Source: a virus (Duplodnaviria > Heunggongvirae > Uroviricota > Caudoviricetes). Taken from it: a stretch of DNA of 64,000 bases. Below are positions 1 to 60,840 of the stretch, piece after piece. The stretch is taken from the IMG/VR virus record IMGVR_UViG_2529292828_000009. One strand, given 5' to 3'. The stretch's first letter is position 1, and every line of letters begins with the position of its first letter. The position numbers were made by a program, and so were the translations under genes. The notes beneath the pieces were generated by a model. The model saw only the letters and a list, made by a program, of their open reading frames with translations. It made no database searches and had not been told where the DNA came from.

Positions 1-34
1 TAGCGGGCGCACAGGTCATTTACCGTCGCGTAAT

Positions 35-18680: not shown

Positions 18681-18681
18681 G

Positions 18682-35440: not shown

Positions 35441-35727
35441 AACTCATCCATTACGGCTATTCCGAGCTGGGAGAGTGCGGGACAGGACATTAGAGGGCCG
35501 TATTCCATCAGGTCTGAAAGCAGGGCGCAGGCGATTTCCATGCCTTTTGTTTGCCCGTGCTGTCGCAGATAAAATCCTTCAAGCTCACGGGCAATAGCGG
35601 TTTCAATTTCATCCAGAGTGAGCTGCAGATGGCGGTTTTGCTGATAGCAGGCACTCAACCAGGCGCAGGCTACCGCGCGGCGATACAACGCTACCCGAAG
35701 TGAAAGGGAAAGAGTGCGTGATTTCAT
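35404..35727 (-). CDS. P4-like hypothetical protein upstream of primase
   Basis: 107 aa ORF, position. Confidence 0.3.
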
Positions 35728-35987
35728 TGCACCACCTCCATGTTCATGAGGTCATCCTGGCAACGCTGTACCACGCCATCAAGCTGCTCTGTCATCAGAT
35801 AAATCAGGGAAACCAGTTGTTCACATTGAGCACTGGCAGGTTTTTCGTAGCAATCCTGAAGAACAGCCATTCCAGTGACAAACTCTCCCACGTTACGAAG
35901 ATGCTTCAGGCGGAGAATATCGTCATAAGAGATTGCGGCGTGATTCATTAGATCACCTCCCGGACAGGCAGGCGAGCAGCAAGACAA
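35724..35987 (-). CDS. P4-like hypothetical protein
   Basis: 87 aa ORF, position. Confidence 0.3.
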
Positions 35988-36139
35988 AGCACATACTCAT
36001 GGACCAGTGAAAGACGTGCATGATGCTCATTGCTGGCGATGATACGCAGCATACTGATACGTGGTTTACGTTCTGCACGACGAACGGCGGCAAAAACAAA
36101 TATAAATTGAGGATGTGACGGGGCGAGGATCGTAGCCAT

Positions 36140-36410
36140 AAGGGCAACCTCCAATAAGTAGCGGTAAATGCCACCACCGGAGTTCCTACGCTCATGGGTG
36201 GTGACCCGAACGGGGGTAGGAATACCGGCCTTATTGGAAACCGGCCAGCCCGAAGGCTGCCCCGCCCGGACCACCATTATCTGAAAGGGGCTAAGGTATA
36301 AGCACCGCAGCCCGAAAAATGGGTGTGCCTGAGCAACGACGTAAAAAAAGACGCACGGCGCGTCTGGTGTCGCCAATAAGTAACTCGGGTTCCTACGCCC
36401 GGCAGCCGAT
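36140..36410 (-). ncRNA. Candidate structured RNA / P4-type RNA immunity region (direct repeats flanking a complementary element)
   Basis: CCAATAAGTA...GTTCCTACGC at 36151-36191 and again at 36373-36400; complementary GGCCTTATTGG at 36227-36237; GC-rich, no convincing ORF. Confidence 0.35.
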
Positions 36411-36492
36411 TTTGCGGCAGCGGGAAAACTATACCTGGAAAAGATATCAGGACGCAAGCCAGAAAAAAGGAGATGAGACTGCAAAGCAAGTT

Positions 36493-36753
36493 TCACGCAT
36501 GGCCTCCTTGCTCGCGGGCAGCAATTCGCGCCGCCATCCATGCACTGACCTCCGACTGTACCCAGGCCACATTTTTTCCACCCAGGGATATCTGCTGCGG
36601 GAAGGCATCGCGGCTGATAAGGTCGTAGATGGTTGAACGGGATAGCCCGCAAAGGTGCATCACTTCAGGTAATCGTATGAAGCGCTCCTGCTGAGCCGGA
36701 ACCGGGAGCACCGGAGCAGCTGGTGCCGGGGTGGAAACGGAAATACTATTCAT
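36493..36753 (-). CDS. AlpA-family phage transcriptional regulator / excisionase-like
   Basis: [25 protein letters not shown]. Confidence 0.75.
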
Positions 36754-37299
36754 CTGGCTACCTCTCTAATATGTTTACAACAGTCCGGGCAATTCCATGC
36801 GGATTCAGGTAGCTCCTTATTATGTTTATATAAGCGGCTCGCGCATGCTTTATTTATTTTGTGTGAAATGTTGATTTCTCAAAAAATAAAACAGCTAAAA
36901 ACCGTATGAAACGAACAAAAACAAACAATTCCTTTATGGAATATAATAAGGAGCATCAATAATAAAAAAGTCTATTACACTAGGCAGGATCACAGCTCAA
37001 ATCTGAACCAGCCCATATCATTCAGGGCTTTACATCATAAGCACTAAGACAACACCTGATTAATAAAAGAGCCAAAAACGGCCAAAAATAAACAGCTCAC
37101 CATATGTATCAATAAATCCGATGATTAAAGAAATTAAATTACCATCTTACTTCCGCATGTATCCGAATGTGTTTAATGAACATCAGACAAATTCATTTTT
37201 ATGAATATTTTCCTGAAATGCAACTGAGTGCAGGGAGGTTGAATGTTCAATTATTAAACAGATATAAGACATCTTTTATTCTTTACATAGAATATGTAT

Positions 37300-37503
37300 T
37301 GAATACTGGTGAATATTGGTGAGGAGAAAAGATCCAGTAATAAACTGAAATAAATATCGCGACTTATATGAAAAAGAAATATATGTTTAATTTTATCTCT
37401 GTGAACAGTCATGAACAGTAGATGATCACTTTAATTAAAACACTACACCACTTAACCACATGTATTTACTATATTTTTATTGAAGTGAACAGTAGTGAAT
37501 AGT
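37300..37503. repeat. Clusters of tandem 9-10 bp repeats (GTGAACAGT / GTGAATAYTGG) upstream of the sid-like operon
   Basis: gtgaacagt at 37401-37409, atgaacagt 37411-37419, gtgaacagt 37485-37493, gtgaatagt 37495-37503; gaatactggt gaatattggt at 37301-37320. Confidence 0.5.
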
Positions 37504-37625
37504 ATGTATTAAAGGAAGCGTGTAGATCAGACATGACACCTTTCTCTGGCTAGCCAGAACAAGGTCATTGTTCAGTCACTGACACAATCCTCCTCGGTAG
37601 TGCGCTTGTATGGACCCCGGCACAA

Positions 37626-38411
37626 TTGACACAACAACAAAACACTACCGGAGCAGCCATGACAACTGTTAACCAGATCTCTGATGCAAACATTACCCCC
37701 ACCCTCCCGCCGAAAATTCGCGAAGCGGTGGAAAAAGTTAAGGCAGCAAAAGCTGTCTGGCAGGAAGAACGGCGAAAACAAACCGAAGCTGCTGCAATGA
37801 CTGAAACTATCCGTAAACGTCAGGAAGATACAAAAACGGAGACGCAGGCGCTTAATGATGAATGGCGAAACCTGTTTCGTGAGAATCAGGGGAATATGAC
37901 GCCACGAATGAAAAAACTGCGGGCAGAAATCGCCCTCGGACGCGAAACACTAGATGAGTTCGAAGATTTGCTGGCTGCTCAGGCTGCAGAAAATGAATTC
38001 CTGCCATGGAAAACTGCGGATGCTGCAAACCGCTACATCAGCGAACATAATCACCTGATTGAAACTCATGCAGTGTGGCTCTGGAATGAGTTTATGAAGG
38101 AACACGGCCAGAAACTTATTCAGATCCTTGGACTGCTGAAAATGACTCTGGGCCGAAGCGCATCTTCTGTTATCGGTGTAGTTCATACCGTAAACGACCC
38201 CGAAAGTGTGCTGAAGCAATTTATCAGCGAGCAACTCACCACTCCGGCACTGTTCTGTAACGTATCTTCAACGGATGATATTGCCCTGCCGGGGATCAGC
38301 ATTTATGCGGACGATAAAGCCATACAGGATGCCAGACAATCACCCAGCCCTGCAGCACGTTCCCGGATGCTTAAACAGCGTGACATGGCTAAAGGGGGCG
38401 AGAAGGAATGA
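37626..38411 (+). CDS. P4 Sid-like protein (putative external scaffold / capsid size determination)
   Basis: 261 aa coiled-coil-rich protein first in the psu-containing operon; assignment by position. Confidence 0.4.
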   Translation: MTQQQNTTGAAMTTVNQISDANITPTLPPKIREAVEKVKAAKAVWQEERRKQTEAAAMTETIRKRQEDTKTETQALNDEWRNLFRENQGNMTPRMKKLRAEIALGRETLDEFEDLLAAQAAENEFLPWKTADAANRYISEHNHLIETHAVWLWNEFMKEHGQKLIQILGLLKMTLGRSASSVIGVVHTVNDPESVLKQFISEQLTTPALFCNVSSTDDIALPGISIYADDKAIQDARQSPSPAARSRMLKQRDMAKGGEKE

Positions 38412-38962
38412 ATACCGGAACCATTACTCAGGAAGCTCTCAACGATTACCGCGCGGCAATAAAAAGCTGGCTGACACTACGTAATGTGCAAAGTACCAGC
38501 CAGCTTCGTCTGGCTGCTTTGCTGGATACTGAAGAAAAACCCGCAGCATATGCCAGCCAACTTGAGGATCTTCGTGAGCGTCTTGCACTCCTCGAATGGC
38601 AGATTAACTGTGCCGCCCGGGATGGTCTTTATGCTCACCAGATTGTGCTGGAAAGCTGTGTTACAAGCGCAACTGAAAACTTCATGAGCGAGCATGGTGA
38701 TGCACTCACTGACGCTCTGGCTCCTTTTCTTTGTGCACCATACGGGCTTGAGGCGGCAATGAAAATATTACGAACCGCTGTAGCCCGACAAACGGAAGTC
38801 CGTACTCCGGTAATTTCAGCAGCATATAAGAGCATTATCGACGAAACCGGATTAACGGTGGATGCATCAATGCGCGCTGATGCTTCAGCCAGTTTCACCC
38901 CGGCACAACATAAAGTTTTCCTGGCCCGCCTTAACCGACTTAATGAAAAAGGAGTGTGCTGA
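38408..38962 (+). CDS. P4 Psu-like protein (polarity suppression / capsid decoration)
   Basis: 184 aa; HGDALTDALAP and SFTPAQ motifs resemble P4 Psu as I recall it. Confidence 0.55.
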   Translation: MNTGTITQEALNDYRAAIKSWLTLRNVQSTSQLRLAALLDTEEKPAAYASQLEDLRERLALLEWQINCAARDGLYAHQIVLESCVTSATENFMSEHGDALTDALAPFLCAPYGLEAAMKILRTAVARQTEVRTPVISAAYKSIIDETGLTVDASMRADASASFTPAQHKVFLARLNRLNEKGVC

Positions 38963-38963
38963 T

Positions 38964-39236
38964 ATGGCCCTGAAGTGTCCTGAATGTGGCGCGGTCGCTC
39001 ACGCCAGAACCAGCGCCTATGAAGCTCCGTCGGTTAAACGCTCATGGTATCAGTGCCAGAATCTGGAATGTTCCTGCACATTTACCGCACTGGAAAGCGT
39101 GGATACGATAATTATGAAGCCTCGGTGCAATGAACAGGAATCAGACAAAGCAAAAATACCGGAAAAACAACAGCAAACTCTCAATCGCTATGGCTCCGCG
39201 TCAAAGCTGTCAAACCGTCAGCAAATTCCTGTCTGA
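38964..39236 (+). CDS. Ogr/Delta-family zinc-finger late transcription activator
   Basis: MALKCPECG...YQCQNLECSCTF; start at 38964 with AAAAAGGAG upstream. Confidence 0.75.
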   Translation: MALKCPECGAVAHARTSAYEAPSVKRSWYQCQNLECSCTFTALESVDTIIMKPRCNEQESDKAKIPEKQQQTLNRYGSASKLSNRQQIPV

Positions 39237-39842
39237 TTAGCAAAATACGACCACGAAGTCCCGGTCCAGTACCGGGATTTTTTACGCCTTTTCCCTGGCT
39301 GGCCTGAGAGCGTATGAGTGCATATCTATGGCGCATGAAAACGCATGAGTCTCATGCGCCATTTTTGACGCGAAAGCCCTTGTGTGGTGGCTTCTGAGAC
39401 GATTTACGGGGTGCATGAAAACCAGTCTGTTAAGCGAAGCTGGCAGGCGGGCGGGGCTGCTCGCGCTAAGGGAGAAAATAGCAAACTCAGCCGCGCAGGC
39501 GGTGACAATGATTGACGAGATACTGGCTGGCAGTTGCTGAAATCTCCGCAATGATTCAAGAACTGCAGTGTATCGATGCAGCACACGTAAACTGAGCGGC
39601 GCTACGGGTAATATTTATAGATTTGTCATCCTTAGTGAGCATGGTTCTCACTCTTGTAACCTCTACCTGTACAAGATATCGTAAGACCTCAGATCAAACA
39701 TGCACGTGTATTAAAGGTGGGCAAGCGTGGCGGGAAGATAATTGTGCGCACTGTAGTCAAAGATAGGGATTGTGATTACTTTTTCTTCCAGCCGTGGTGT
39801 AGTAAATTATTGGGAACAAACTCTTAATGACATCAATGGATA

Positions 39843-41141
39843 ATGATTATGACTACAAATCCGGACGGATACATCTCATTTTTAAAACCCGGTAGTAACG
39901 ACTGGAAAGCATTAGATAGTAAATCGTTTATTTATTGGCGAGACTACATAACGAATGAAAGTTTAGAAGAGTCAGGAGATTCTATTTCTCCAGCACAATC
40001 TCTTACTGATGGTGAAAAGAAGGAGTTGAAAGACAATCAGGCATATATAAACGAACTATTACTAAAATCATTACAATTCCCAAATCTTGCATTCTTCGCT
40101 GGGAGTGGTACTTCGCTTGGGGACGTTGGAGGACCAAGCATGTGGGATCTCTGGAAGTGTGCAATGTGGAGTGAATCTTCTATAAACGAGGATGGTCAAT
40201 TAAAACCTGATGCTCAAATTGTTTGTGATAAAGTAAAATATAAAGAGCGAGAGTATCCTAACATAGAACACTTTCTTTCTAATTGTGAAGCATATTTAGC
40301 ATTTCATGATGATGAAGAAGTGTTGAATTTTTTAAATAAAGTTAAAACAATTATTTTAGACAAATGTCGCTCATTTATTGATGATGGCAACTGTGATCTT
40401 TCAGCTTACATCAATTTATTACAAAAAATGGGGAGGAGGAGAGTCAGAGATCCTAGACTAAAAGTTTTCACAACTAACTATGATTTAGCCTTTGAAACAG
40501 CTGCTTCTGAATTAGGAATGATGGTAGTTGATGGTCTTTCATATACAGGAGTTCGCAGATTCGATGGTAAATATTTTAACTACGATGTTGTTAAAAGAGA
40601 TGAAAACGAGCATGAGTTTGTAGAGGGCGTATTCCAGTTATTTAAACTCCACGGTTCTGTAAGTTGGATAAGAAAGGATGGGCAAATATATGAATCCAGC
40701 CAACCAACAGCAACAAACGCATGTCTAATATATCCAGCGAAAGGTAAATATCAGCAAGCCTTTATTCAACCTCACTTAGAATTACTTTCAAGATTGTTAG
40801 ATTTCTTGAGAAAAAGAAATAACTGTTTAGTTATATCTGGATTTGGTTTCAATGATGACCATCTTTCTGAACCAATTTACTCAGCAATAAAATCCAATCC
40901 AAGCATGAGGTTGATTATAGTAGATTTCAAATGTGCAACTCATATTCGGAATAAAGGGGGGGACGGTTCTAGTAAATATTGGGATTTACTAAAACAACTC
41001 TCACTATCAGGTTATGACATTCACTTCATAAATGCATCTTTCAGTGATTTTGTTAAATTAGTTCCCAATCTTAAAGCATTAACCCCAGCAGAACAGTTGG
41101 CTAAGGTAATAAAACAAGTAGGAGTTAACAATCAATTATGA
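39843..41141 (+). CDS. SIR2-family (sirtuin-like NADase) protein, partner of HerA
   Basis: FFAGSGTS Rossmann loop, VFTTNYD, KLHGS motifs; 432 aa. Confidence 0.7.
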   Translation: MIMTTNPDGYISFLKPGSNDWKALDSKSFIYWRDYITNESLEESGDSISPAQSLTDGEKKELKDNQAYINELLLKSLQFPNLAFFAGSGTSLGDVGGPSMWDLWKCAMWSESSINEDGQLKPDAQIVCDKVKYKEREYPNIEHFLSNCEAYLAFHDDEEVLNFLNKVKTIILDKCRSFIDDGNCDLSAYINLLQKMGRRRVRDPRLKVFTTNYDLAFETAASELGMMVVDGLSYTGVRRFDGKYFNYDVVKRDENEHEFVEGVFQLFKLHGSVSWIRKDGQIYESSQPTATNACLIYPAKGKYQQAFIQPHLELLSRLLDFLRKRNNCLVISGFGFNDDHLSEPIYSAIKSNPSMRLIIVDFKCATHIRNKGGDGSSKYWDLLKQLSLSGYDIHFINASFSDFVKLVPNLKALTPAEQLAKVIKQVGVNNQL

Positions 41142-42859
41142 TTAATACAACACTACAGCTTGGTATTTTGAGGGGCGACCTTAAGGTTGGAGTAGTCTCA
41201 TCAATTTTTGCTCAAACAGTTAGAGCAAATTTAATCTATGCAGGGGAACTCAGCGGAACATATATAGAAGGTTGTAGATATGGAAAAGGAGAAGTTGGTG
41301 AAATATTATTAATAGAAGGACAACAATCTATTGTTCTTGGCCGTTTAATAGAGGTTAAATTACCAGAGCGAGATAGAGGTGAAATATCTGTCGGGTCTCA
41401 AGGAAACTTCAAAGTTGATGCTATCGGCATTATACAACTTCTTGGAACTATTGATCCTTCAAATTTTAGAATTGATTCAGGAATCAAATCATATCCTCGA
41501 TTAGGAGATCGAGTTTATTCTGCTCCCTTAGATTTTATTTCTTTAATACCAGAATTAATTAATAAAGGAATTAAAGATAACGAGGAAGAAAGAATAGGTA
41601 TTGTATTAGGCATTATATCTGGAGGGGCAACAAGTATAGTAACTGTTGAACCTGATAAACTCTTCGGTCGTCATTGTGCTATCTTAGGAGCTACAGGCGG
41701 TGGAAAAAGTTGGACAACTTCCAAGTTAATTGAAGAGTGTTCGAATTACGAAAACTCTAAAACTATAATAATTGATGCAACCAGTGAGTATAGATCGTTT
41801 AAATCTGATTATTGTTTACATTACCATTTAGGTGCCCCAATAAATAAAAACATAAATTCTTTAGAATTTAGAATTCCACCTACCGACTTTGTTGAGTCAG
41901 ACTTTATTGCCATGTTCGATCCTTCTGGAAAAGTACAGGGTCCTAAGCTAAAAGAAGCGATAAAAAGCCTTAGATTAGTAGCTTTAGAACCTAGAATAGC
42001 AACCGATGGTATTTTAAAAAAAATCAATCAACCTAAAACAGATTATCGACGCGCAATGAATACTGGAGACAACTCTAAACTTGTTGATAATCCATCACAA
42101 CCATTTGATATAACAAAACTTATAAAACAGATTGTACAAGAATGTTGTTACGATAATGGAGATAATACTTGGGGAAACGCTGCAACTCAAGACTTAAGCT
42201 ATTGCTCATCTTTGTTAACCAGAATTCAAGCAGTAACGTATGCCAACTCGTTAAGGTCTGTTTTTAATAGTAACGAGGATATATCCACACTAGGTGAAAT
42301 ATTAGAAACTTTTTTACAATCTGATAAACGAGTCCTAAGGTTATGCCTAAGTGATGTTAGCTATGAGTTTTATGCTAGAGAAATTTTAGCCAATGTAATC
42401 GGCAGAAAACTTTTAACTTTAGCTAGGCTTGAAAAATTCAGAACAAGACCGCTGTTAGTTATTGTTGATGAAGCCCATAACTTCCTTGGCAAACGGGTTG
42501 GTTCTGAAGATCATGCAATTAAACTTGACGCTTTTGAGATGATTGCAAAAGAAGGCAGGAAATATGGCCTTAATATATGCTTAACAACTCAAAGACCCAG
42601 AGATATCACTGAAGGTGTGCTTAGTCAAATTGGAACCTTATTGGTTCATCGCTTAACAAACGACCGAGATCGAGAAGTCGTTGAGCGTGCATGCGGTGAA
42701 ATTGATAAATCTGCAGCATCTTTTCTACCAAGTCTCAAACAAGGTGAAGTTGCTCTTGTAGGGGTTGACTTCCCTATTCCTATGACCATCCAGATAGATA
42801 AGCCAATATATCCACCAGAATCTGATTCTCCAGGCTATTGCAATATATGGAAAAAATAA
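41138..42859 (+). CDS. HerA-like FtsK/HerA-family ATPase
   Basis: Walker A AILGATGGGKSWT, Walker B LLVIVDEAHNF, TTQRP; 4-nt ATGA overlap with SIR2 gene. Confidence 0.8.
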   Translation: MINTTLQLGILRGDLKVGVVSSIFAQTVRANLIYAGELSGTYIEGCRYGKGEVGEILLIEGQQSIVLGRLIEVKLPERDRGEISVGSQGNFKVDAIGIIQLLGTIDPSNFRIDSGIKSYPRLGDRVYSAPLDFISLIPELINKGIKDNEEERIGIVLGIISGGATSIVTVEPDKLFGRHCAILGATGGGKSWTTSKLIEECSNYENSKTIIIDATSEYRSFKSDYCLHYHLGAPINKNINSLEFRIPPTDFVESDFIAMFDPSGKVQGPKLKEAIKSLRLVALEPRIATDGILKKINQPKTDYRRAMNTGDNSKLVDNPSQPFDITKLIKQIVQECCYDNGDNTWGNAATQDLSYCSSLLTRIQAVTYANSLRSVFNSNEDISTLGEILETFLQSDKRVLRLCLSDVSYEFYAREILANVIGRKLLTLARLEKFRTRPLLVIVDEAHNFLGKRVGSEDHAIKLDAFEMIAKEGRKYGLNICLTTQRPRDITEGVLSQIGTLLVHRLTNDRDREVVERACGEIDKSAASFLPSLKQGEVALVGVDFPIPMTIQIDKPIYPPESDSPGYCNIWKK

Positions 42860-42897
42860 TTAGTAGGGTCTTTGACCCTACTTTAAAATTTTTAAAG

Positions 42898-44169
42898 CTA
42901 GATAGTTTTTTTTGCAAAGTCGTAGGGGGTTATATATTCCTGAGTGTTAGCATCAAGATAATCGGCCCACCACTGAACCATTAAACGACGCTCATCCAAA
43001 TGCTCTGAAGTATGAATATAAGCAGCCCTAACGCTATTACGCTCAGAGTGGCTTAGCTGACGTTCTATCGCGTCATCACTCCACAACCCTGATTCGCCCA
43101 AAGCACCGCGCGCCATAGTTCTGAATCCATGCCCGCAAACTTCGGTTTTTGTGTCATACCCCATTGTGCGCAAAGCACTGTTAACCGTGTTTTCACTCAT
43201 AACTTTAGTTGCGTCATGATCTCCCGGAAACAGTAGCTCTTTATCACCACTAATCTGCTTAAGCTGCTCTAACAAAATCATCGCCTGCCGACTAAGCGGA
43301 ACGATATGCTCCTCTTTCATCTTCATCCCACGGTACGAGTAACGGACACCTTTAATTTCTTCTCGTTTTGCCGGTATACGCCAAAGAGATTTATCGAAGT
43401 CGAATTCATCCCAGCGAGCGAAACGCAACTCACTGGAACGCACAAAAGTTAGTAAGGAAAGCTCGACTGCAATCCGTGTCATTAAACGGCCACGATATGC
43501 AGCAAGACGTGCAAGAAACTCAGGGAAACGGTTAGAGGGTAAAGCTGGATAGTGTCGTGCTTTGGTTGTCGATAAAGCACCAGCCATATCACTGGCTGGG
43601 TTTGAGTCGATATAATCGTTCTGTACGGCATAACGCATAATAGCTGTAACACGCTGCTGAAGACGCTGCGCGACGTCATGCTTACCACTGGCATCAACTT
43701 TTTTAATCGGGGCTAACAGGTGGCTTGTTTTAAGCTGGCGGATATCGGACGATCCGATATGAGGGAAGATATAAAGCTCAAGATAGCGAAGAACGCGCGC
43801 TCTATGGTCTTCACTCCAGCGCTTGTTACTGGCATGCCATTCACGAGCGATCGTTTCGAAAGTATATGCCCCCGATTTCTCGGCCTGAGCCGCTTTCTGC
43901 TCGGCTTTTGGATCAATACCCTGCACTAATAATCTTTTAGCTTCATCACGTTTTGCCCTTGCCTGGGCAAGTGTCACAGTAGGCCAAACGCCAAAAGCGA
44001 GGCGATCCTCTTTTTTGTCTGAAGGGCGTCTGTATTTCATACGCCAGTATTTAGATCCCTTGGCCGAAACCTCAAGATACAAACCGCCACCATCGGCCAT
44101 TTTGTAGGTTTTGTCTTTTGGCTTTGCGGTCTCGACCAGTCTGGCGTTGAGCTTCATTTGGGGGCACAT
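42898..44169 (-). CDS. P4-family tyrosine integrase of the satellite island
   Basis: Homologous to the integrase at 62135-63385 (shared AVMRYAVQN, FVRSSELRFARW, VCGHGFR, RAAYIH); probable start MKLNARL at 44157. Confidence 0.85.
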   Translation of the reverse strand: MCPQMKLNARLVETAKPKDKTYKMADGGGLYLEVSAKGSKYWRMKYRRPSDKKEDRLAFGVWPTVTLAQARAKRDEAKRLLVQGIDPKAEQKAAQAEKSGAYTFETIAREWHASNKRWSEDHRARVLRYLELYIFPHIGSSDIRQLKTSHLLAPIKKVDASGKHDVAQRLQQRVTAIMRYAVQNDYIDSNPASDMAGALSTTKARHYPALPSNRFPEFLARLAAYRGRLMTRIAVELSLLTFVRSSELRFARWDEFDFDKSLWRIPAKREEIKGVRYSYRGMKMKEEHIVPLSRQAMILLEQLKQISGDKELLFPGDHDATKVMSENTVNSALRTMGYDTKTEVCGHGFRTMARGALGESGLWSDDAIERQLSHSERNSVRAAYIHTSEHLDERRLMVQWWADYLDANTQEYITPYDFAKKTI

Positions 44170-44320
44170 TTCTAATCGAAGTCAAGATGCCCCTAATTAT
44201 GCCCCCAATGGCATCCGGATTTCAACGGACAATCTCGGACGACTCCGGACATAAGAATCACTGTACTCATTGAATTATAAGGAACAATTGGACTTTCTCG
44301 GATGATCTTGGAAGTGCTAA

Positions 44321-44344
44321 TGGTGCCGAAGGCCGGACTCGAAC
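44321..44344. repeat. 24-bp direct repeat of the leuX 3-prime end (att junction between the two islands)
   Basis: TGGTGCCGAAGGCCGGACTCGAAC identical to 63575-63598. Confidence 0.85.
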
Positions 44345-44691
44345 ATCGCAACTATCCTTATGATCTTTAGTAATTAAAGCAATCTACATTGTCGATGATA
44401 CCATCATTGATACCATCAGACCCGATTGATGATAATCGAACAGTAATAAAATATGACTAAACAATTTATGCTTCAACATAAGATTGAATGCTTTGATCTA
44501 CCATTTTAATGCAGTGGAAAAATTTTTAACACAATACTTAAGAAAAATAATTTCATATAAAAACTACATTTCATTTCATATAGTTAACACACCAAAAACA
44601 ACTGTATATAAACCCAGTAAAAAATGGTAGAATCACTATTGTGTTCAATTGTTGAACATTTATAATACATTTGTCGGATAGGGGGGTGTTT

Positions 44692-45279
44692 ATGCAAAGG
44701 AACACATACAACAAAGTAGGTCTATACATCCTATCTTTAGCTATGCTTTTTGTTTTTATTATTATCCTGACTGCCAAAATCCCCTTTTGCTTCACTTCGG
44801 ATTGTAGCTTCATAGGTTTGAAGAGACTTGTATTAACAAATATTGTTCCTATTGTTTGCTTTGTATTTTTTCTATTTAGTATTTATTTTTATAATAGATT
44901 AAAAAACATAACAAAATACAATGGACAAGATAGCGTTAAAATAACATCATGTCAAAGCGAAAGCTATGAAAGTTTAACATTCTTAGCAACATACATTGTA
45001 CCTTTTATGGGGTTTAGTTTTGAAGACATGCAAAAGAATATAGCATATCTTTTGCTTGTAGTAGTAATAGGCATTATTTTTATTAAAACAGACAAGTATT
45101 ATGCGAATCCAACTTTAGCTCTGTTTGGCTTTAAACTATACAGGGTAAATATACTACACCCAGGAAGTGGAGAAACAAAAAATCTGATAGCTATTTCAAA
45201 TGATGTATTAAAAGTGGACGATAATGTTTATTATAGTTTCTTTGATGAATTTGTTTTTATAGCAAGGAAAAAAATATGA
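44692..45279 (+). CDS. Four-TM membrane protein, KwaA-like (Kiwa defence system component A)
   Basis: Four hydrophobic helices; ATG at 44692 after a G-rich RBS; 4-nt overlap with the downstream gene; call is by architecture only. Confidence 0.45.
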   Translation: MQRNTYNKVGLYILSLAMLFVFIIILTAKIPFCFTSDCSFIGLKRLVLTNIVPIVCFVFFLFSIYFYNRLKNITKYNGQDSVKITSCQSESYESLTFLATYIVPFMGFSFEDMQKNIAYLLLVVVIGIIFIKTDKYYANPTLALFGFKLYRVNILHPGSGETKNLIAISNDVLKVDDNVYYSFFDEFVFIARKKI

Positions 45280-46223
45280 CTACTCAGCAGTTAAAAGAAA
45301 AAATTTCAAAAATAATTGATAACTTTAGCGGAATCAGGGTTGTATTTACTACTACTGCTAATGAACTAAAGCTTTCCAGAATTGAAGGGAGTGCATTAAA
45401 TAGCATAGCTGAAGGGTTTATTGACAAAATCAAAGAAGACATTATAAATAATGAAGATCTCACCTCACCATTGCTGTCCAATTTTGATGATAGAAAAAAT
45501 GCCTTGTTTAAATTTGATTACGAACAATATCCTGAAGAATTTAACAAAATCACTCAGGCCATCGCTATCCCTCCTAACTCACAAGATTATTATAACCCTT
45601 TAAATAAATTCACAGATGTGAAAGGAATTATAATTTTAATAAGTGGAGATAACAAATGCCTGGCTCTTTATAAAAACAAAACTAACCTTGCAGTATTGAG
45701 AAATAGCAGAAAAATGTTTAATTTAGTCCCTGACCCTGATGGATACTTGAAACAACTCCCTAATGAGATATTACGGTTAGATTTCAATTATGATCTATTA
45801 TCAATTGGTGAGGATTTTTACATTAAAAATCACAAGACTCTTGAAACTCAAATGAAATTTCATCAAGTGATTGAAGCCCAGGCAGTTATTGCTTTAAATT
45901 CTTTACGGGATTCACTACTAATTGAAGACATATCAGGTTTAGAAAAGAGTTCGAGAGAAATTTCATTCGCTAGAAAGTTGGCAAAAATCTCCAAACATTC
46001 TCCTGTTTTGGGGAAAATAGATACTAAAACAATTATCGATTATGTATCCCAACATAAATATTTATCTGCAATACTTCAGATTAATGAAGCAGGAAATAAG
46101 TTATTAATTAAAACCAAGACATCACAGAAGCATTTCATTAAACTCATGAGCGATGATTATTTACAATCAGATCTAACTAAAATAATATACATGAGCATAG
46201 CAAAAGACAGATTAGATGAATAG
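45276..46223 (+). CDS. KwaB-like soluble protein (DUF4868-like, Kiwa component B)
   Basis: 315 aa, coupled to the upstream 4-TM protein; call by size and architecture. Confidence 0.45.
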   Translation: MTTQQLKEKISKIIDNFSGIRVVFTTTANELKLSRIEGSALNSIAEGFIDKIKEDIINNEDLTSPLLSNFDDRKNALFKFDYEQYPEEFNKITQAIAIPPNSQDYYNPLNKFTDVKGIIILISGDNKCLALYKNKTNLAVLRNSRKMFNLVPDPDGYLKQLPNEILRLDFNYDLLSIGEDFYIKNHKTLETQMKFHQVIEAQAVIALNSLRDSLLIEDISGLEKSSREISFARKLAKISKHSPVLGKIDTKTIIDYVSQHKYLSAILQINEAGNKLLIKTKTSQKHFIKLMSDDYLQSDLTKIIYMSIAKDRLDE

Positions 46224-46237
46224 AATTTTAAGTAGAA

Positions 46238-46278
46238 GTGACAAATATTATAAACCATTCTTGAAATATATTTGTCAC
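46238..46278. terminator. Bidirectional hairpin between convergent genes
   Basis: 11-bp perfect inverted repeat GTGACAAATAT (46238-46248) / ATATTTGTCAC (46268-46278). Confidence 0.5.
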
Positions 46279-46287
46279 TATTACTAA

Positions 46288-46959
46288 TCATTCGCGTGCT
46301 TGATTATTTATGCTGGATGTTCTAATTGTTGCCGAATGCCAATACCCACCACTATATGTTCTTGCTATAGTAATAAATCCAGTACAGGTAATTACTGTCA
46401 TTAAAATCAGGAAAATATAATAGAAATTAAGCGGAGCTTTCAAATCAAAAGGAGGTAACGAATACACCAGCAACCCTATCCATACAATAGTTATAAATAA
46501 ACTAATAATTTGGTTTATCTTAGATACTGATATTGGAGATGGACCAGTAAGTAAATGAACCGAAAACTCTTTTATTCCTTTCGGTTTTGCACGAGATAAC
46601 ACCACTTTATATAGTGGACCATTAATATTATCTTCTAACATATCGACATGTTTTTCCCAGTTTCCCTGCCAATATTTACTACCACGGTTAACACAGAGCC
46701 AACCGAATGAAAATACAATTCCCAGTGAACACAGTAATACGGATAAATCTGTCTTAGCTGTAGAAGAGGAAGTCTGTATAGCAACAAAACCAGCTAAAGT
46801 TGCCGCTATAAAAGTCCAGAAATAAGTTGCTCTTTTCCAGTAATGGTCTATCTCATATTTCCGTATATCTAAAGCCTGTAGCAGAGCATTCTTATTACAG
46901 TCTCTATCATTAAGAAAACGGCTACGATATTCCTCATCTGAAAATGGAGTAATTGGCAT
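46288..46959 (-). CDS. Orphan multi-TM membrane protein with a SLATT-like N-terminal arrangement
   Basis: Charged helix, then TM pair (YFWTFIAATLAGFVAI ... LSVLLCSLGIVFSFGWLCV), then two further C-terminal TM helices; no match recognised. Confidence 0.5.
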   Translation of the reverse strand: MPITPFSDEEYRSRFLNDRDCNKNALLQALDIRKYEIDHYWKRATYFWTFIAATLAGFVAIQTSSSTAKTDLSVLLCSLGIVFSFGWLCVNRGSKYWQGNWEKHVDMLEDNINGPLYKVVLSRAKPKGIKEFSVHLLTGPSPISVSKINQIISLFITIVWIGLLVYSLPPFDLKAPLNFYYIFLILMTVITCTGFITIARTYSGGYWHSATIRTSSINNQARE

Positions 46960-46985
46960 ATTGATTTACCTCTATTTATAATAGT

Positions 46986-47013
46986 AAAAGAGGGGTCCCC
47001 CCCCCTCTTTTTT
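46986..47013 (-). terminator. Rho-independent terminator at the 3-prime end of the RM gene
   Basis: AAAAGAGGGG (46986-46995) / CCCCTCTTTT (47002-47011) stem with flanking T-run. Confidence 0.55.
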
Positions 47014-50000
47014 AGTTATTTTTAAACAAAACCTTTACTATTCCATCTATATCCCTTAGGAAACTCTCGAAAGAGGATCTATTAGCCTTAGCTTCATGAG
47101 CCTTTTTTGAAAGTTCAGACAGCTCACGATGCTTTTTATTACCTTCATCATAAAGAGGAACATTAATTGGAGGTCTGATTTTAAAAGTTCTGCTATCACT
47201 GGACTTCAGAATGTACTCCCCAGTGATTGATGAGTTAAAAATAGCACAAATGTAATGTGCCTCATCCAGGGTAATAAATTTACCATCTTGCCTCTGAGAT
47301 ATACTCACAGCATGGTTCTGAAATAAAGGTCTCTTTTTGTCACCCCATGGAGTATCCATTTGACTCACAACTGCTGCTGCCCATTTAGTGTTATCACGAA
47401 AACAAACAAAATGATCACCATAAGTATATTCACCTACACGAGCCAATGCGTAAAATGCAGTAATATTGCTTTTACCTATGATTTTGTCATTGTATCGAGT
47501 CTGCGACTCTAATAACTGTTTATTATTAATGAAATAGTCAGCCAACATAGGGCTTTCTTTAACAAGCTCATCTACAGGTATCGGTTTACGACTCAATTCT
47601 CTATATGGAAAGGGTACGAAGAACTCAACATCTTTTACCCCAAAAGGTTCAATATTTGTTCCTTTAATCAGGGGGTATATATGCTTGGTTTCAGCAAAAA
47701 TCATTTGTTTTGCCACTTTATACTTAGACTTGCCACCCTGATAATTTTCAAAAATTGCAGTGTTGTTAGCTTTTTTTGTCTTAAATTTCCATAAGAATAA
47801 TTCTTGAGGGAAAAATTCAATCCCTTCCCTGCCATGATATTCGCAATATCCACTGATATTTCTGTAATCATTGAGTTTTTCGGAATCTGAAGCATATGTA
47901 AAGGCTGTATTGCTTACACTAACAGTGCCAGCGATCTCTTTACGGATAGAGAACTCATGCGAAATAGCATTAAAATGCGTATGCTGTGAGTAGCTATCAA
48001 GGCTTCTTCCGGTTTTATTTTTCGTCAAAAATGTTAAAGGTATCCCTTTTAAATAATCGACATTTTTTGACGAGAATAAATAAGTCGCAAACTTGATTGT
48101 AACAGGCTTGAATGGATGCCCGGATTCACTCCAGTCGTATACCTCTTGGAGATATAGTTTTTGGTTATCCCCAAAGTTAAACTCTCGAAATCCTTCATAT
48201 GTTTGCTGGAAAAGGATATTTTGAGGCATAAGGAATGCCAATATGCCATCTTTCTCTAACCAGTTTTCAGCAGATACATTAGAAATTAATGCACAAATGT
48301 TAAGGTTTATACCACCAGTAAGCCTATCACCAGAAAATAGGCTCCTACTTAAGCATAAGCCTTTAATTCGTTCTCGATATCCTGCAGGTAAATTTTTCCA
48401 GTCAATCCATGGTGGATTACCAACAACCATATTAAATTTGCCTAAGTTTGCAGTGGTCAAAAAATTAGTGACTATTCTAGCCCAAATTCCATTCCAGTCT
48501 CTTTCTTCTAGTTCGACAAACTTATCTGATAAAGTTTTTAATTTTTCATAAATGCTAGGAGAACTACTAATATCCCCACTTACTTCGATTAATTTTGCAA
48601 AAACACTATCACGATCTCGAAGTTTAATATATCGTTCAATATCAACAATTGCTTTTGAGAACTTATGAGAATCACTCAAAGCTTGAGTAGGCATCTCGAT
48701 ATAAATCGAGCCTTGCAAAGTATTTATTTCGTATCGCAAACAGTCAATGCCATCAATTATGACCTTTTCTGGAACATACGATGCGTCACCAAGATAAATT
48801 GGAATTTCAACTTCGCTACCTTCATCAAGCAAATGTGATATATTGATGAAATAGTTGATTCTTGCAGTTAAAGCTGCAAGAGGATTTAAATCAATACCTT
48901 TGACAGATGTTATGACATCTTTTAATTTAGCTTTGCTATCAGTATGAGTACGACTCAGAACTTTACCTATTAATGTAATTATAAAGGTTCCGCTACCACA
49001 ACATGGATCAATTGCAGTCCAGTTGTTCTTATTTACAACATGCTCTTCAGCAGAGGATATCAAATGCTCTGCAAGCCATTCAGGAGTGTAAAATTCTCCA
49101 AGAGAATGTCTTACTTTATCAGGAATAATGTTCATGTATAGATCTTTGAAAAGATCGTATACTTTTTCACCCTCTTTGAAAAGGTTTCCTTCCTCATATT
49201 CACTTAGTAATGAAAATATATTTTTAATACTAATGAATATATCATCTCCCCATTGTTCCTTAGTACAATACCAAGAGAAAAAGTCACCTTCCAGCAGGTT
49301 CAAAATCCCATACTTCCTGAAAATAGCACCTTCTTCTAATGTGTATAAATAGTTTCTCATTGATTCAGAGTTACTATTGATCATATCTGAAAAATTATAA
49401 TCATTTTCAAATACAAGTCCAGATAATGTTTTATAAGCTATTATTTTTACAATAATCGCATATGCAGTCTGGAGAGCATAAAGAACTTTATATTCATCAT
49501 CGTTAGTAAGTAACCTATGACCAGCAATATCTTCAAGTGATAACTTTCGTTCTAAAATTGCTGTTTGCTGAGATTTATCATCATGTGCAAGTCTAAATAG
49601 CTCCTTCCATTCGTTGAAGAGCATTTGAGAGCGGCCCGTCATGTTATTTTCAAGAGCCGAAAGAAGATTACCTATTAATTGAGTTGTTAAAGATGGAGAT
49701 CCATAGCAAAAATCATCAACGATGTTTTTTGGATGCAATGCCTTCTTATTCAAAAGAACTAAAAGCCCGCAAATTTTTTTAATTGCATTCTTATCAAGCG
49801 GTTGCAACTTTGATGTTAAAATGCCATCAGTATCACGAATAAGGTAATTAATACCGTCTGTTAGCACTCCAACATAGCGTTGATTCCCTTCTAACTTTAA
49901 AGAATCAAGGTAAGCCTGGATTTGAAGCACAGCCTTATTAATATCATTATCTTTTTTTAATTTCTCTCTATGCTTAAACTCTATTACTAAAGATCCAATA

Positions 50001-50290
50001 CGACTATCGATACGCCCCTTACTGTTGCTTCTGCCGGTCGTGTTGTATTTAATACCATCAATAAAAATTTCTTTTTCGGGACGGTAATCAATACCAATGA
50101 AATCTTTAATGAAAGGAATAAAAGCAAGGTCGAAACCAGAAACAACTTCTGCTTCATTTTTGGCTAAATATGAGGACTCATTAATTTTTTTAGATATAAT
50201 ATCAGCAGCTAAAAGAAAATCTGAGTCAGTAACAATCTTTTCTTGAGCTTTGAACTTAATTTTTTTTTGAATTTCTTCTAACACAGCCAT
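47012..50290 (-). CDS. Type IIG restriction-modification enzyme, MmeI-like (PD-ExK nuclease + N6-adenine methyltransferase + target recognition)
   Basis: N-terminal IDSRIGSLVIEFK (D...ExK), SAM motif DPCCGSGTF, catalytic VGNPPW; 1092 aa in one polypeptide. Confidence 0.65.
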   Translation of the reverse strand: MAVLEEIQKKIKFKAQEKIVTDSDFLLAADIISKKINESSYLAKNEAEVVSGFDLAFIPFIKDFIGIDYRPEKEIFIDGIKYNTTGRSNSKGRIDSRIGSLVIEFKHREKLKKDNDINKAVLQIQAYLDSLKLEGNQRYVGVLTDGINYLIRDTDGILTSKLQPLDKNAIKKICGLLVLLNKKALHPKNIVDDFCYGSPSLTTQLIGNLLSALENNMTGRSQMLFNEWKELFRLAHDDKSQQTAILERKLSLEDIAGHRLLTNDDEYKVLYALQTAYAIIVKIIAYKTLSGLVFENDYNFSDMINSNSESMRNYLYTLEEGAIFRKYGILNLLEGDFFSWYCTKEQWGDDIFISIKNIFSLLSEYEEGNLFKEGEKVYDLFKDLYMNIIPDKVRHSLGEFYTPEWLAEHLISSAEEHVVNKNNWTAIDPCCGSGTFIITLIGKVLSRTHTDSKAKLKDVITSVKGIDLNPLAALTARINYFINISHLLDEGSEVEIPIYLGDASYVPEKVIIDGIDCLRYEINTLQGSIYIEMPTQALSDSHKFSKAIVDIERYIKLRDRDSVFAKLIEVSGDISSSPSIYEKLKTLSDKFVELEERDWNGIWARIVTNFLTTANLGKFNMVVGNPPWIDWKNLPAGYRERIKGLCLSRSLFSGDRLTGGINLNICALISNVSAENWLEKDGILAFLMPQNILFQQTYEGFREFNFGDNQKLYLQEVYDWSESGHPFKPVTIKFATYLFSSKNVDYLKGIPLTFLTKNKTGRSLDSYSQHTHFNAISHEFSIRKEIAGTVSVSNTAFTYASDSEKLNDYRNISGYCEYHGREGIEFFPQELFLWKFKTKKANNTAIFENYQGGKSKYKVAKQMIFAETKHIYPLIKGTNIEPFGVKDVEFFVPFPYRELSRKPIPVDELVKESPMLADYFINNKQLLESQTRYNDKIIGKSNITAFYALARVGEYTYGDHFVCFRDNTKWAAAVVSQMDTPWGDKKRPLFQNHAVSISQRQDGKFITLDEAHYICAIFNSSITGEYILKSSDSRTFKIRPPINVPLYDEGNKKHRELSELSKKAHEAKANRSSFESFLRDIDGIVKVLFKNN

Positions 50291-50835
50291 CGTTACATCT
50301 CTATGTTACATAGCAAATTTCTTATAATTTTACCACATTTCAATAAATATTTCATCATGTTTGTTTGGTATTATCCATACACTTGAGAAAAGTTAATTTC
50401 ACAATTAAGCAAGGGCTAACTCTCCGAAGCTCCGCTTCTTATAGTTCCCCTTGATTTTCTTTCTTTCAGTCAGAAAATACAGACATTTCATCATGAAAAT
50501 TGATAATTTATTTTTAGTATTAAAGTATTATCTCACCTTATCGCCGAACCGATTTGAGATTTAGTGCAACTATAAGTATAGTTCCCCTGACAAATAGCTT
50601 TCTTATTTAAGTAACGGTTAAACGATAGGGCCTCACTACTGGTGCCAATCATGCCATACTCTCAAATGCTACCCCTGCAGACAGGGCTCTACTACCGTAA
50701 AGCTGGCATAAAGTATTATAGTTACCTCTCTTAAAAGGAATTTCTAACTCATGTACCAGATCTACATGAGTTCTACATCCCCCTGATGAACTTAGCAGTG
50801 ATAGCTAACCGATACTGAAGTGTACTGCTGAGTGA

Positions 50836-50887
50836 TTTGACAAATAGAAAATATTAAGCTATAACAGTTGTATCCTACAGGATACAA
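50836..50887 (+). promoter_or_regulatory. Sigma70-like promoter (TTGACA-17 bp-TATAAC) followed by a perfect palindromic operator
   Basis: TTGACA 50836-50841, TATAAC 50859-50864, palindrome GTTGTATCCTACAGGATACAAC 50866-50887. Confidence 0.55.
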
Positions 50888-50899
50888 CATGAGAGCATT

Positions 50900-51157
50900 A
50901 TGCCAGAAATAGATAGGCAGGGAGGTTTGGCTTTCTACATGTACTTTTTCGATACGGGAAAACATCATGTTCCTCATGTACATGTAAAATTTGGCGAATA
51001 TGAATTGGTTTTAAGTATAGCGGATGCCCAAGAACTCGCAGGATACTTACCCGATAAATGGAGAAATAAAGCAAGAAAACATGTATTAACAAATAAACAG
51101 AAACTTAAGAAAATGTGGGTTCTCGCCGTGAATGGAAAACAGCCAGGAACTATCTGA
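50900..51157 (+). CDS. DUF4160-family protein
   Basis: MPEIDRQGGLAFYMYFFDTGKHHVPHVHV N-terminal signature. Confidence 0.6.
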   Translation: MPEIDRQGGLAFYMYFFDTGKHHVPHVHVKFGEYELVLSIADAQELAGYLPDKWRNKARKHVLTNKQKLKKMWVLAVNGKQPGTI

Positions 51158-51170
51158 AGAGGAGAGATTT

Positions 51171-51671
51171 ATGAGCAGAATTATAGACTTAGATATTATT
51201 GATGATTTTACTTTGCAGTTAACCTATGAAAGTGGTTTGTCTGGAAAATTTAACTTCTTTAAATATCGTGATTGCGAAGTTTTTAATAATCCTAAAAAAT
51301 TCCAGAAATTTGCTTTGCTACCTACTGGTGATCTCGAATGGTTAGGGGGCGAACGAGTTACTTCCTTAGAACTGTTAGATAAACTTGTTAATATAAGCTC
51401 TACTGAAAAGAGTAATATTTCAGGCACCACCGACATACTCATGATGGCGTTTCAAGATGCTGTTCGTGAAAATAGACCACAGATTATTCAGGCAGCTTTG
51501 CGAGCTATGCTTGATAAGCATGGTGTAGCAAATGTTGCAAATATGACAAATGGAAGTAGAACAAGTATTTATAAGTCCCTAAGCGAAAATACTAATGTAT
51601 CTATGTCTACTGTTATTAACCTTGCTCATAGTGTTATGGAAATTGAGAAAAAAGAAAAAGAAATATATTAA
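51171..51671 (+). CDS. DUF2442-like domain fused to a C-terminal HTH (antidote-like) domain
   Basis: MSRIIDLDIIDDFTLQLTYESG start after an AGGAGAG RBS; C-terminal LRAMLDKHGVANVANMTNGSRTSIYKSL HTH. Confidence 0.5.
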   Translation: MSRIIDLDIIDDFTLQLTYESGLSGKFNFFKYRDCEVFNNPKKFQKFALLPTGDLEWLGGERVTSLELLDKLVNISSTEKSNISGTTDILMMAFQDAVRENRPQIIQAALRAMLDKHGVANVANMTNGSRTSIYKSLSENTNVSMSTVINLAHSVMEIEKKEKEIY

Positions 51672-52013
51672 TCCCCCATTTTAAGAACGAGGATTGTACA
51701 CCCACCTGATTCAATAGCATTCTCTTAATTCGTTTATATGCCCTTGTCCTCATGATAGAATTGAGTACAGAATAGCTTCTCCAAAAAGGAAAATAATGCG
51801 GATAATTATAGCATTTTTAATTTATTCCCTGCGAGTTAAATACCTTTACTATTATAAGATAAAAACCCAAGCATTAGCATAACTTCATTTCATACATCAC
51901 ATCCCCTCACATTTTCTTCATTACATGTTGACATGAAATAAATTTACTTATAATTATATAATATCAATAAGTAATATAGGGCATTTTAACACACACATAT
52001 AAAAGGAGTTTAT

Positions 52014-52418
52014 ATGGAAGATATAAAAAACAAAGAAGACATTTCACCATCTACAGAAGTCAGGCTCTTCACCCCCACCATGAAAAAAACTTCTAAAGTG
52101 CATCCCAACGAGCGGAGATTACACTGTGTCAGTGTCCGATTAAATAAAAAAGAGTTAGAGAAGATTGAAGAACTCAGGGGTCGTTACCGTAGGGGAGAAT
52201 GGCTGCGTATGGTGTCGTTAAGCAAACTTCCTCCATTGATCCCAGAGATAAACAAGGATGTCTGGATCATGTTGGGGGAAATATCGCAGAAACTTAATCG
52301 TCTGATAGTACATCTGGATTCTAAAACCAGTGACAGCCCTCTGACTAAGACAGAAGCTTATGCAGTCAAAAAACAACTTCATGAGCTTCGTTTAAGCCTG
52401 ATAACTTCTCGTCCATAA
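52014..52418 (+). CDS. MobC-like relaxosome accessory protein
   Basis: 134 aa basic protein immediately upstream of the relaxase; RRLHCVSVRLNKKELEKIEELR. Confidence 0.5.
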   Translation: MEDIKNKEDISPSTEVRLFTPTMKKTSKVHPNERRLHCVSVRLNKKELEKIEELRGRYRRGEWLRMVSLSKLPPLIPEINKDVWIMLGEISQKLNRLIVHLDSKTSDSPLTKTEAYAVKKQLHELRLSLITSRP

Positions 52419-52430
52419 AAATTTCTAATT

Positions 52431-53621
<1,191 letters not shown>

Positions 53622-53845
53622 ACAGCTAGTTGTAAACACCTTTCGTAACCTAACTCAATTGCTTAGTAATAAATTTGTGTTTAGTCAAGAAAATATTGAT
53701 CGTTATTACAGATCGATAATCTAGTTATGATAGACAATAACTATCAAGTAACAATCATCGATCGGTACAAGCAATTTTACTAAAGCGAGTCGGTCATCGA
53801 GAATCTCTGTAAACGCACCATTTAATCTGCAACCCTGGGGTTGAT

Positions 53846-54118
53846 ATGAAAGACGAAACAATAAAGTGCCCGTTCTGCTTTACACAAAGTCCTCATGGTG
53901 TGCGGATTTGCAAAGGGTGTCATGCAAAGGTTGCTTACGGTGAAAGCCCGCTCAGTGTGGCATTCCTGTTTCAATTCGTGGCATTTGGTCTCGCGTGGTT
54001 AGCATTTTCGTGGACCGACAGCACTCTTGTATCAGTCATTACGTTTTTCGTAAGCATCATTATTCTTATCTATAAAATCAAAAGAATGTATGCAGACAGA
54101 GTTGTTTTTATACGGTGA
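53846..54118 (+). CDS. Small membrane protein: N-terminal zinc ribbon + two TM helices
   Basis: CPFC...CKGC followed by two hydrophobic helices. Confidence 0.45.
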   Translation: MKDETIKCPFCFTQSPHGVRICKGCHAKVAYGESPLSVAFLFQFVAFGLAWLAFSWTDSTLVSVITFFVSIIILIYKIKRMYADRVVFIR

Positions 54119-54159
54119 AATTAATTTCACACAATCGCAAACATAAAATGAGAAAGTAA

Positions 54160-54546
54160 ATGAACCGATTTATAACGTCCTCTTTTTTTATTATTGTCTT
54201 CCTGCTTTCTGGCTGTTCAACATCAGGGAACCAGAACCTTAAAAACGAAACACCACAAAGCCTCCAGTCAAAGATCATTAAAAACAAAACAACTAAGACG
54301 GAATTACTCTCTAAGTTAGGTGAGCCTGATACAAGAACCACACTCGATGACGGAAATGAGCAGTGGAAATATTTCATGACTAACAATCAGTTCAGTGCAA
54401 CGACTTTCATTCCAGTTGTGGGGCTGTTTACTGGCGGTTCCCAAACTCAGTCTAAAACTCTTGAAATCGACTTCAAGGGAGAGACTGTAAGTAAATGGAC
54501 TTTTTCCTCTGACAATAACAACACCAAAACTGGAATTCTTAATTAA
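54160..54546 (+). CDS. Predicted lipoprotein
   Basis: Signal peptide with lipobox LLSGC. Confidence 0.5.
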   Translation: MNRFITSSFFIIVFLLSGCSTSGNQNLKNETPQSLQSKIIKNKTTKTELLSKLGEPDTRTTLDDGNEQWKYFMTNNQFSATTFIPVVGLFTGGSQTQSKTLEIDFKGETVSKWTFSSDNNNTKTGILN

Positions 54547-54553
54547 TTGTTTT

Positions 54554-54880
54554 TTGGATAAGAAAATGAAAATATACTCAATTATCACAGTTATCATTAC
54601 CACCTTCCTTCTAACCGCATGTAACAATGAACCATCGCAAGACGATATATACAATGTTTTCAAAAGTGTTGTAGATAGAACAAATACAAGTATGAAAGCT
54701 CTTGATTCAAGAGTTACAGAAAAAGATCTTTTAAGAATCGATTACGTGAAGAAAGTTAGTTGCACAGAAGAAGCAAACAATGTTTATAACTGCATTGTCG
54801 ATGCCTCTATTAGTAATATGAAACAAACAAAACCAGTAAAACTAATCAAATCTGATGGTGTCTGGAAAGAAGTTCAGTAG
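54554..54880 (+). CDS. Predicted lipoprotein
   Basis: Signal peptide with lipobox LLTAC. Confidence 0.5.
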   Translation: MDKKMKIYSIITVIITTFLLTACNNEPSQDDIYNVFKSVVDRTNTSMKALDSRVTEKDLLRIDYVKKVSCTEEANNVYNCIVDASISNMKQTKPVKLIKSDGVWKEVQ

Positions 54881-54930
54881 TAGCCTATATCAAGAAGTCT
54901 TTTAGCCCCTGCACAGGGGCTTTTTATTGC

Positions 54931-55365: not shown

Positions 55366-55452
55366 CCTTGCATTAGTTAAATAGTCTTCCTGACCATATA
55401 TTTATATTTATCGCATTTATTAAACTTGTCAATAGGTGTAACCTATCAAATA

Positions 55453-55839: not shown

Positions 55840-55853
55840 AAGTATCTCCTGTT

Positions 55854-60819: not shown

Positions 60820-60840
60820 AAAAATCTCTCCCAGGTTTAA

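Follow-up and report, generated by a model that had tools for sequence, protein, structure and literature searches.

A two-gene Kiwa operon of the RM12579 clade at the far end of a leuX island

Background

The first account of Kiwa is said to be that of Doron et al. (Science, 2018), and the preprint from which we take its mechanism has reportedly since been published in Cell (2025). In that preprint, Zhang, Todeschini et al. found that both genes, kwaA and kwaB, and the transmembrane (TM) helices of KwaA are required for defence, and their clones establish that kwaA and kwaB alone suffice for it (PMC11785009). The supercomplex built from tetrameric KwaA and dimeric KwaB spans the membrane like a fence and curves in the direction opposite to it, KwaB forms foci at phage attachment sites before DNA ejection, phages escape through mutations in their tail fibres, and the defence is non-abortive (PMC11785009). 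KwaB binds single- and double-stranded DNA non-specifically via a channel in its DUF4868 domain, without cleavage, and this binding lowers phage DNA replication and late transcription; the lambda protein Gam inhibits KwaB, yet is split between KwaB and RecBCD (PMC11785009).

The strain treated as the reference for Kiwa in the literature is Escherichia coli O55:H7 RM12579, whose system protects against lambda and SECphi18, and both phage protection and reduced conjugation have been reported for this system plus five other Kiwa operons (PMC11785009). Clones from E. coli ECOR8, ECOR12, ECOR49 and D9 are active under their native promoters, and Kiwa systems of other clades, those of ECOR8, ECOR12 and ECOR49 among them, work by the same supercomplex mechanism but differ in phage specificity (PMC11785009). 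Here, we analyse a pair of genes within a 64,000-nucleotide stretch of DNA, hereafter the window, that a sequence-only reading had proposed to be a Kiwa-like module on the basis of architecture and size, and we compare this locus with the reference system and with other Kiwa loci in E. coli. Coordinates of the main features are collected in Table 1.

Table 1. Features of the window discussed in the text, with positions counted from its first letter
Feature	Position	Strand	Remarks
MuB	15712-16650	-	Mu-like prophage
MuA transposase	16689-18689	-	Mu-like prophage
Mu c-type repressor	19079-19669	+	Mu-like prophage
P4-like primase	33056-35440	-	P4-like satellite
Ash	35948-36652		P4-like satellite
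Psu	37626-38411		P4-like satellite
SIR2	39843-41141		Defence pair with HerA, between psu and int
HerA	41138-42859		Defence pair with SIR2, between psu and int
P4-like integrase	42898-44169	-	P4-like satellite
Distal att direct repeat	44320-44344		25 bp; identical to the tRNA-Leu 3' end, 63574-63598
Candidate kwaA promoter region	44625-44666	+	Motif match and position; identical in RM12579
Shine-Dalgarno-like GGGGGG run	44681-44686	+	5 nt before the kwaA ATG
kwaA	44692-45279	+	195-aa integral membrane protein; KwaA profile matches
kwaB	45276-46223	+	315-aa soluble protein; DUF4868/KwaB domain at residues 114-301
AT-rich hairpin	46231-46285		Between convergent kwaB and 8xMP; -16.9 kcal/mol
8xMP ('RipA family octameric membrane protein')	46288-46959	-	223 aa; PF24838, 1.3e-39
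Type IIG restriction-modification enzyme	47012-50290	-	1092 aa, single chain; PADLOC REase_MTase_IIG 2.3e-156; Eco57I and N6_Mtase domains
leuX, tRNA-Leu(CAA)	63575-63659	-	Only tRNA gene in the window; integration site and proximal island boundary

Results

Identity and integrity of the operon

The sequence-only reading had named profile searches of the larger protein against DUF4868 and of the membrane protein against KwaA models as the way to check its proposal, and both searches bear it out. KwaB matches Pfam family PF16162 (KwaB, formerly DUF4868) with an E-value of 4.5e-30 and 105.5 bits against a cut-off of 26.3, covering profile positions 3-186 of 186, and the Pfam search matched no second family to this protein; it additionally matches PADLOC PDLC00233 (1.7e-115, residues 1-314) and the NCBIfam equivalog NF041623 (248.1 bits, cut-off 200). 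KwaA matches PADLOC PDLC00219 (8.3e-77, residues 4-194, profile 3-193 of 194) as well as the NCBIfam equivalog NF041622 (188.3 bits, cut-off 100). The KwaA/KwaB call is therefore carried by full-length profile matches in three independent libraries, above curated cut-offs where these exist. Structures in the PDB point the same way, with KwaA identical at 194 of 195 residues to 9mrg_A ('Kiwa protein KwaA') and KwaB at 313 of 315 to 9mrx_K, named Kiwa protein KwaB. With matches to Kiwa models and structures ranging from 1e-77 to 1e-201 and no competing family at any threshold, the notion that the pair is some other module of a membrane and a soluble protein, or chance open reading frames in AT-rich DNA, is refuted; nothing was found in its favour, and we give it a vanishingly small chance. 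The term 'Kiwa-like' was right as an assignment but understated, as the genes are Kiwa itself, from the reference clade.

The two genes are adjacent on the same strand and both intact, and their products align to the reference proteins over full length without gaps. The kwaA stop and the kwaB start share a 4-base ATGA overlap (45276-45279), consistent with translational coupling of the pair. Reading kwaA from its earliest possible start, a TTG at 44671, gives the 202 aa of the program-made list of open reading frames, compared with 195 aa from the ATG at 44692; we prefer the ATG because it matches the starts of the PDB and RefSeq proteins exactly and is preceded by the GGGGGG run. The sizes proposed from sequence, about 195 aa for a membrane protein and about 315 aa for a coupled soluble protein, hold for kwaA read from this ATG and for kwaB.

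By Kyte-Doolittle hydropathy, KwaA is strongly hydrophobic at about residues 7-31, 43-67 and 115-133 and weakly so in a fourth segment at about 91-109, and KwaB has no hydrophobic segment. The published description assigns KwaA four TM helices (PMC11785009), and the solved structures with four TM helices are of a protein that differs from this KwaA at K45R only. Collectively, we are close to certain that kwaA and kwaB form an intact Kiwa operon, a two-gene anti-phage and anti-plasmid system of the RM12579 clade, and that it belongs to the cargo of an island of about 19 kb in leuX, at whose far end it lies.

Functional residues and allele distribution

Over about 2 kb, the Kiwa locus shows 99.5% DNA identity to E. 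coli O55:H7 RM12579, DEC5D and TB182A, in which the genes are annotated as kwaA and kwaB. Relative to RM12579, kwaA carries one non-synonymous and one synonymous codon change, and kwaB two non-synonymous and five synonymous changes. The resulting substitutions (K45R in KwaA; F175L and D274N in KwaB) are conservative and fall outside the published functional residues.

Using lists of DNA-contact and interface residues taken from PMC11785009, we found all six KwaB residues that contact DNA (N134, R142, R167, D169, K187 and R233) and, of the 17 residues listed there for the KwaA-KwaB interface, all but one, namely K75, N77, Q79, D80, H156, T162, Y181, F183 and K194 in KwaA and R21, R35, N42, P100, N101, Q103 and Y157 in KwaB. 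Positions at which changes abolish defence are all kept (KwaA K75, N77, Y181, F183 and K194; KwaB R21, R35, Y157, P100, N101 and Q103). The one exception at the interface is KwaA position 76, which the text of the paper names as V76 but which is a Y both in 9mrg and in the window; this looks like a wording issue in PMC11785009 and not like a difference in this allele. With every published DNA-contact and defence-critical interface residue retained, the operon would be expected to have the same function as RM12579 Kiwa. The points established for this operon are what it is, that it is intact, how its genes are ordered and overlap, where it lies in the genome, and that the published functional residues are retained.

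Among 5,426 complete E. coli genomes, 6 carry the Kiwa allele (counted as a match over at least 80% of the allele length) and none of these is identical to the window, so the allele is uncommon. One of the six, E. coli ST2350 (NZ_CP031321; locus L002 2012-3048), has a decayed copy, about 90% identical, at the same island position, and its annotation gives kwaA 123 aa and a KwaB-like gene 222 aa; the operon can thus be lost by erosion.

Expression signals and the possibility of silencing

Upstream of kwaA, the candidate promoter region contains an extended -10-like element, TGGTAGAAT, at 44625-44633, followed by TTGTGT (44639-44644), a 16-bp spacer and TATAAT (44661-44666). The sequence-only reading had located the TTGTGT-16-TATAAT element exactly, at 44639-44666, whereas TGGTAGAAT lies one base to the left of where it had been placed. 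A generic sigma-70 scan of 44200-46500 listed neither candidate site, its omission of the candidate promoter being explained by a -35 element that matches at only 3 of 6 positions, and the 9 promoter-like sites that it returned over the same interval represent no excess over shuffled sequence (13.2 +/- 3.4). With both strands of the 19-kb island counted, the pattern TTGnnn-16..18-TATAAT has only three occurrences, and the one at kwaA ends 26 bp before the ATG; this rarity, together with the position, makes it a reasonable candidate for the kwaA promoter. Both hexamers are identical in four loci, and the 370 bp upstream are essentially identical to RM12579, although the four-locus conservation is uninformative since these sequences are at least 90% identical throughout.

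Downstream of kwaB, the AT-rich hairpin has a perfect 12-bp inner stem (46237-46248 paired with 46268-46279) and a 19-nt loop, and it is possibly a bidirectional terminator. A terminator scan of 44200-46500, which requires G+C-rich stems, listed no terminator, and an Rfam scan of 42000-51000 returned no RNA family.

These observations bear on whether the operon, while genuinely Kiwa, might be silent or non-functional here, either through xenogeneic silencing of AT-rich island DNA or through an inactivating substitution, and thus travel as a passenger that provides no active defence. The G+C content of the locus is 30%, against roughly 50% in the window's core part, and it could permit silencing by H-NS; a silent operon would also fit the lack of a statistical promoter signal in the generic scan, and the ST2350 copy demonstrates that loss happens. 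Yet neither reading frame is truncated, synonymous changes relative to RM12579 are at least as many as non-synonymous ones, the published functional residues are kept, and the upstream 370 bp scarcely differ from those of RM12579, while clones of other E. coli Kiwa operons are active from their native promoters (PMC11785009). We regard a silent or inactivated operon as unlikely, and infer that the operon of the window is expressed from the TTGTGT/TATAAT promoter and active in this strain.

The 8xMP neighbour and the type IIG gene

Across the shared hairpin, 64 bp from kwaB and convergent with it, lies the 8xMP gene, which sits downstream of the type IIG gene and on the opposite strand to kwaAB. 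The type IIG gene replaces the HsdM-like pair of RM12579, which shows that cargo is swapped within one island family. Searches of the 8xMP protein against PDB sequences, PADLOC, NCBIfam and PHROGs gave no match, and a literature search on the 8xMP/RipA family retrieved nothing relevant, the papers concerning, for instance, RIPA buffer and Ralstonia Rip effectors.

The proximity of 8xMP raises the question of whether kwaA and kwaB are only part of the functional unit, with 8xMP/RipA, and perhaps the type IIG gene as well, working together with KwaA and KwaB. Beyond the short distance and the common hairpin, the 8xMP allele stands beside Kiwa wherever a complete E. coli genome has this Kiwa allele at full length (5 of 5), and homology between the window and RM12579 forms one block (44321-46938) that spans Kiwa and 8xMP before breaking inside the 5' end of the latter. 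However, the five linked loci are near-identical, so that the linkage may reflect a single inherited block, and more distant loci separate the two: the diverged Kiwa loci of JSWP006 and NCTC9080 have a winged helix-turn-helix (wHTH) gene in that place and no 8xMP, while MB06233 has a diverged 8xMP with no Kiwa nearby. Moreover, kwaA and kwaB protect on their own in the published clones (PMC11785009), and 8xMP, being on the opposite strand, reads as the downstream gene of a restriction-modification operon. A unit of more than two genes is hardly credible to us on this evidence. As a general third component of Kiwa, 8xMP was rejected on the grounds of the diverged Kiwa loci that lack it and the diverged 8xMP that lacks Kiwa, and we treat it as a separate, linked module beside a two-gene operon.

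In each of three different islands 8xMP is the downstream gene, and its upstream partner varies: the type IIG gene in the window, an HsdM-like gene together with a hypothetical one in RM12579, and in MB06233 a gene for a 286-aa hypothetical protein. Such a pattern of partner swapping would fit an uncharacterised defence-associated membrane component. That 8xMP modulates this Kiwa clade or, more plausibly, is the constant membrane part of an undescribed two-gene defence cassette with variable partners would nevertheless be a long shot. For the Kiwa operon itself, there is no novel reading beyond the three conservative substitutions.

Position within the leuX island

The distal att repeat, ATGGTGCCGAAGGCCGGACTCGAAC, gave 0 chance matches in 100 shuffles, and it also forms the boundary with the P4-like satellite to its left. 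The module had been described as lying immediately inside an island att repeat, and kwaA does start 347 bp inside this leuX-derived repeat, which makes Kiwa the last cargo at the far end of the island (44345-63574). The island further comprises a P4-type integrase beside the tRNA gene (62135-63385), a DUF6387 gene, another two tyrosine recombinases and a MobA/VirD2-type relaxase (52431-53621, plus strand); with this content, the roughly 19-kb island is an integrative mobilisable element. These two additional recombinase genes overlap on the minus strand (59022-60224 and 57725-59089) and are followed by a 624-aa open reading frame (55854-57728) with no Pfam match, and together they resemble a recombinase-trio arrangement.

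The same island family occurs at leuX in other E. coli, with a common backbone and different cargo. About 120 bp of sequence next to the distal att on its island side (window 44345-44442) is kept in the leuX islands of other strains such as EcPF5, MS15046 and 401656, and the persistence of this stretch beside other cargo suggests an island end (recombination arm) next to a variable cargo slot.

Other elements in the window

In tandem with the Kiwa island lies a P4-like satellite of about 11.6 kb (32669-44344), which ends at the 25-bp att on one side and at a degenerate att (32669-32707) with a tripled GGTGCGAA unit on the other. Its SIR2-HerA pair occupies the interval between psu and int, which we take to be a known defence hotspot of P4. 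Between nanS and this satellite, the region 31253-32183 encodes a 216-aa HNH-domain protein (31253-31903, minus strand) with weak matches to type IV methyl-directed restriction enzymes. The adjoining segment 31956-32183 is 94.7% identical to RM12579 DNA (L001 17500-17727), and in RM12579 that segment runs into the 5' end of a gene annotated as 'phosphorothioated DNA-binding restriction endonuclease'.

At the other end of the window, a Mu-like prophage covers positions 1-20007, with its left end at 19989-20007, an exact match to the canonical Mu left-end sequence. It is followed by fim genes (20128-24745), among which fimD, fimC and fimI are 100% identical to many E. coli strains, which identifies the window as E. 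coli DNA, and homology to the E. coli fim operon begins at about 20001. The apparent insertion site of the prophage is thus in fimF, which lies just downstream of fimD, at about 110 bp into the gene, and type 1 fimbriae should be disrupted by a prophage at this site.

Discussion

A mechanism for this operon can be proposed from published work on near-identical proteins. Inner-membrane KwaA tetramers and KwaB dimers would assemble a fence-like transmembrane supercomplex, and KwaA would sense the perturbation of the membrane caused by phage attachment or DNA ejection or by a conjugative pilus. KwaB would then use its DUF4868 channel to bind DNA entering the cell, non-specifically and with no cleavage, and the bound protein would stall replication forks and block late transcription, with the cell surviving without abortive infection. 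The phage DNA mimic Gam would be expected to inhibit KwaB but would have to divide itself between KwaB and RecBCD.

The operon is an already known system in a known genomic setting, with nothing to surprise a specialist, and it carries little weight for discovery. A first-stage call made from architecture and size alone turned out to be correct, and the main use of the present result is as a check on that stage; it also serves to annotate the window. The stacked mobile elements at leuX bring the strain three defence systems within 25 kb, of which Kiwa and the type IIG restriction-modification enzyme share an island and SIR2-HerA belongs to the P4-like satellite.

The closest relative is the RM12579 system itself (PDB 9mrg, 9mrr, 9mrx, 9mtn, 9nyu and 9o0i), which agrees with our locus in gene order, in protein lengths (195 and 315 aa) and in its ATGA overlap. 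The upstream region and the adjoining 8xMP gene are shared as well, and each operon is placed at the distal att end of its leuX island. The two loci differ on both sides of this common segment. Beyond 8xMP, RM12579 has an HsdM-like methyltransferase and a hypothetical gene where the window has the 1092-aa type IIG enzyme, and beyond the att repeat it has a truncated integrase and then other defence genes, including a type II Zorya, in contrast to the intact P4-like satellite found here.

A four-gene cargo of kwaA, kwaB, RipA/8xMP and a type IIG Eco57I-like gene is shared with E. coli BA22372 (NZ_CP040397), in which the visible part of the type IIG gene ends at the same spacing from 8xMP as here. 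DNA identity to BA22372 is 97.1% over Kiwa and 98.2% over 8xMP, with KwaB 98% identical, but its left flank carries HNH and restriction-gene remnants instead of a P4-like satellite. Other E. coli Kiwa clades, represented by JSWP006 and NCTC9080, likewise place a kwaA-kwaB pair beside a tyrosine recombinase in an island, though at about 70% DNA identity that extends over part of kwaB only, and with other neighbours in place of 8xMP.

No Zorya genes lie near Kiwa in the window. In Zorya, an inner-membrane complex senses perturbation of the envelope, and a cytoplasmic effector acts locally on incoming DNA. Kiwa is likewise membrane-anchored and acts at the site of phage entry, but the proteins of the two systems are unrelated, Zorya being built around the MotAB-like ZorAB motor.
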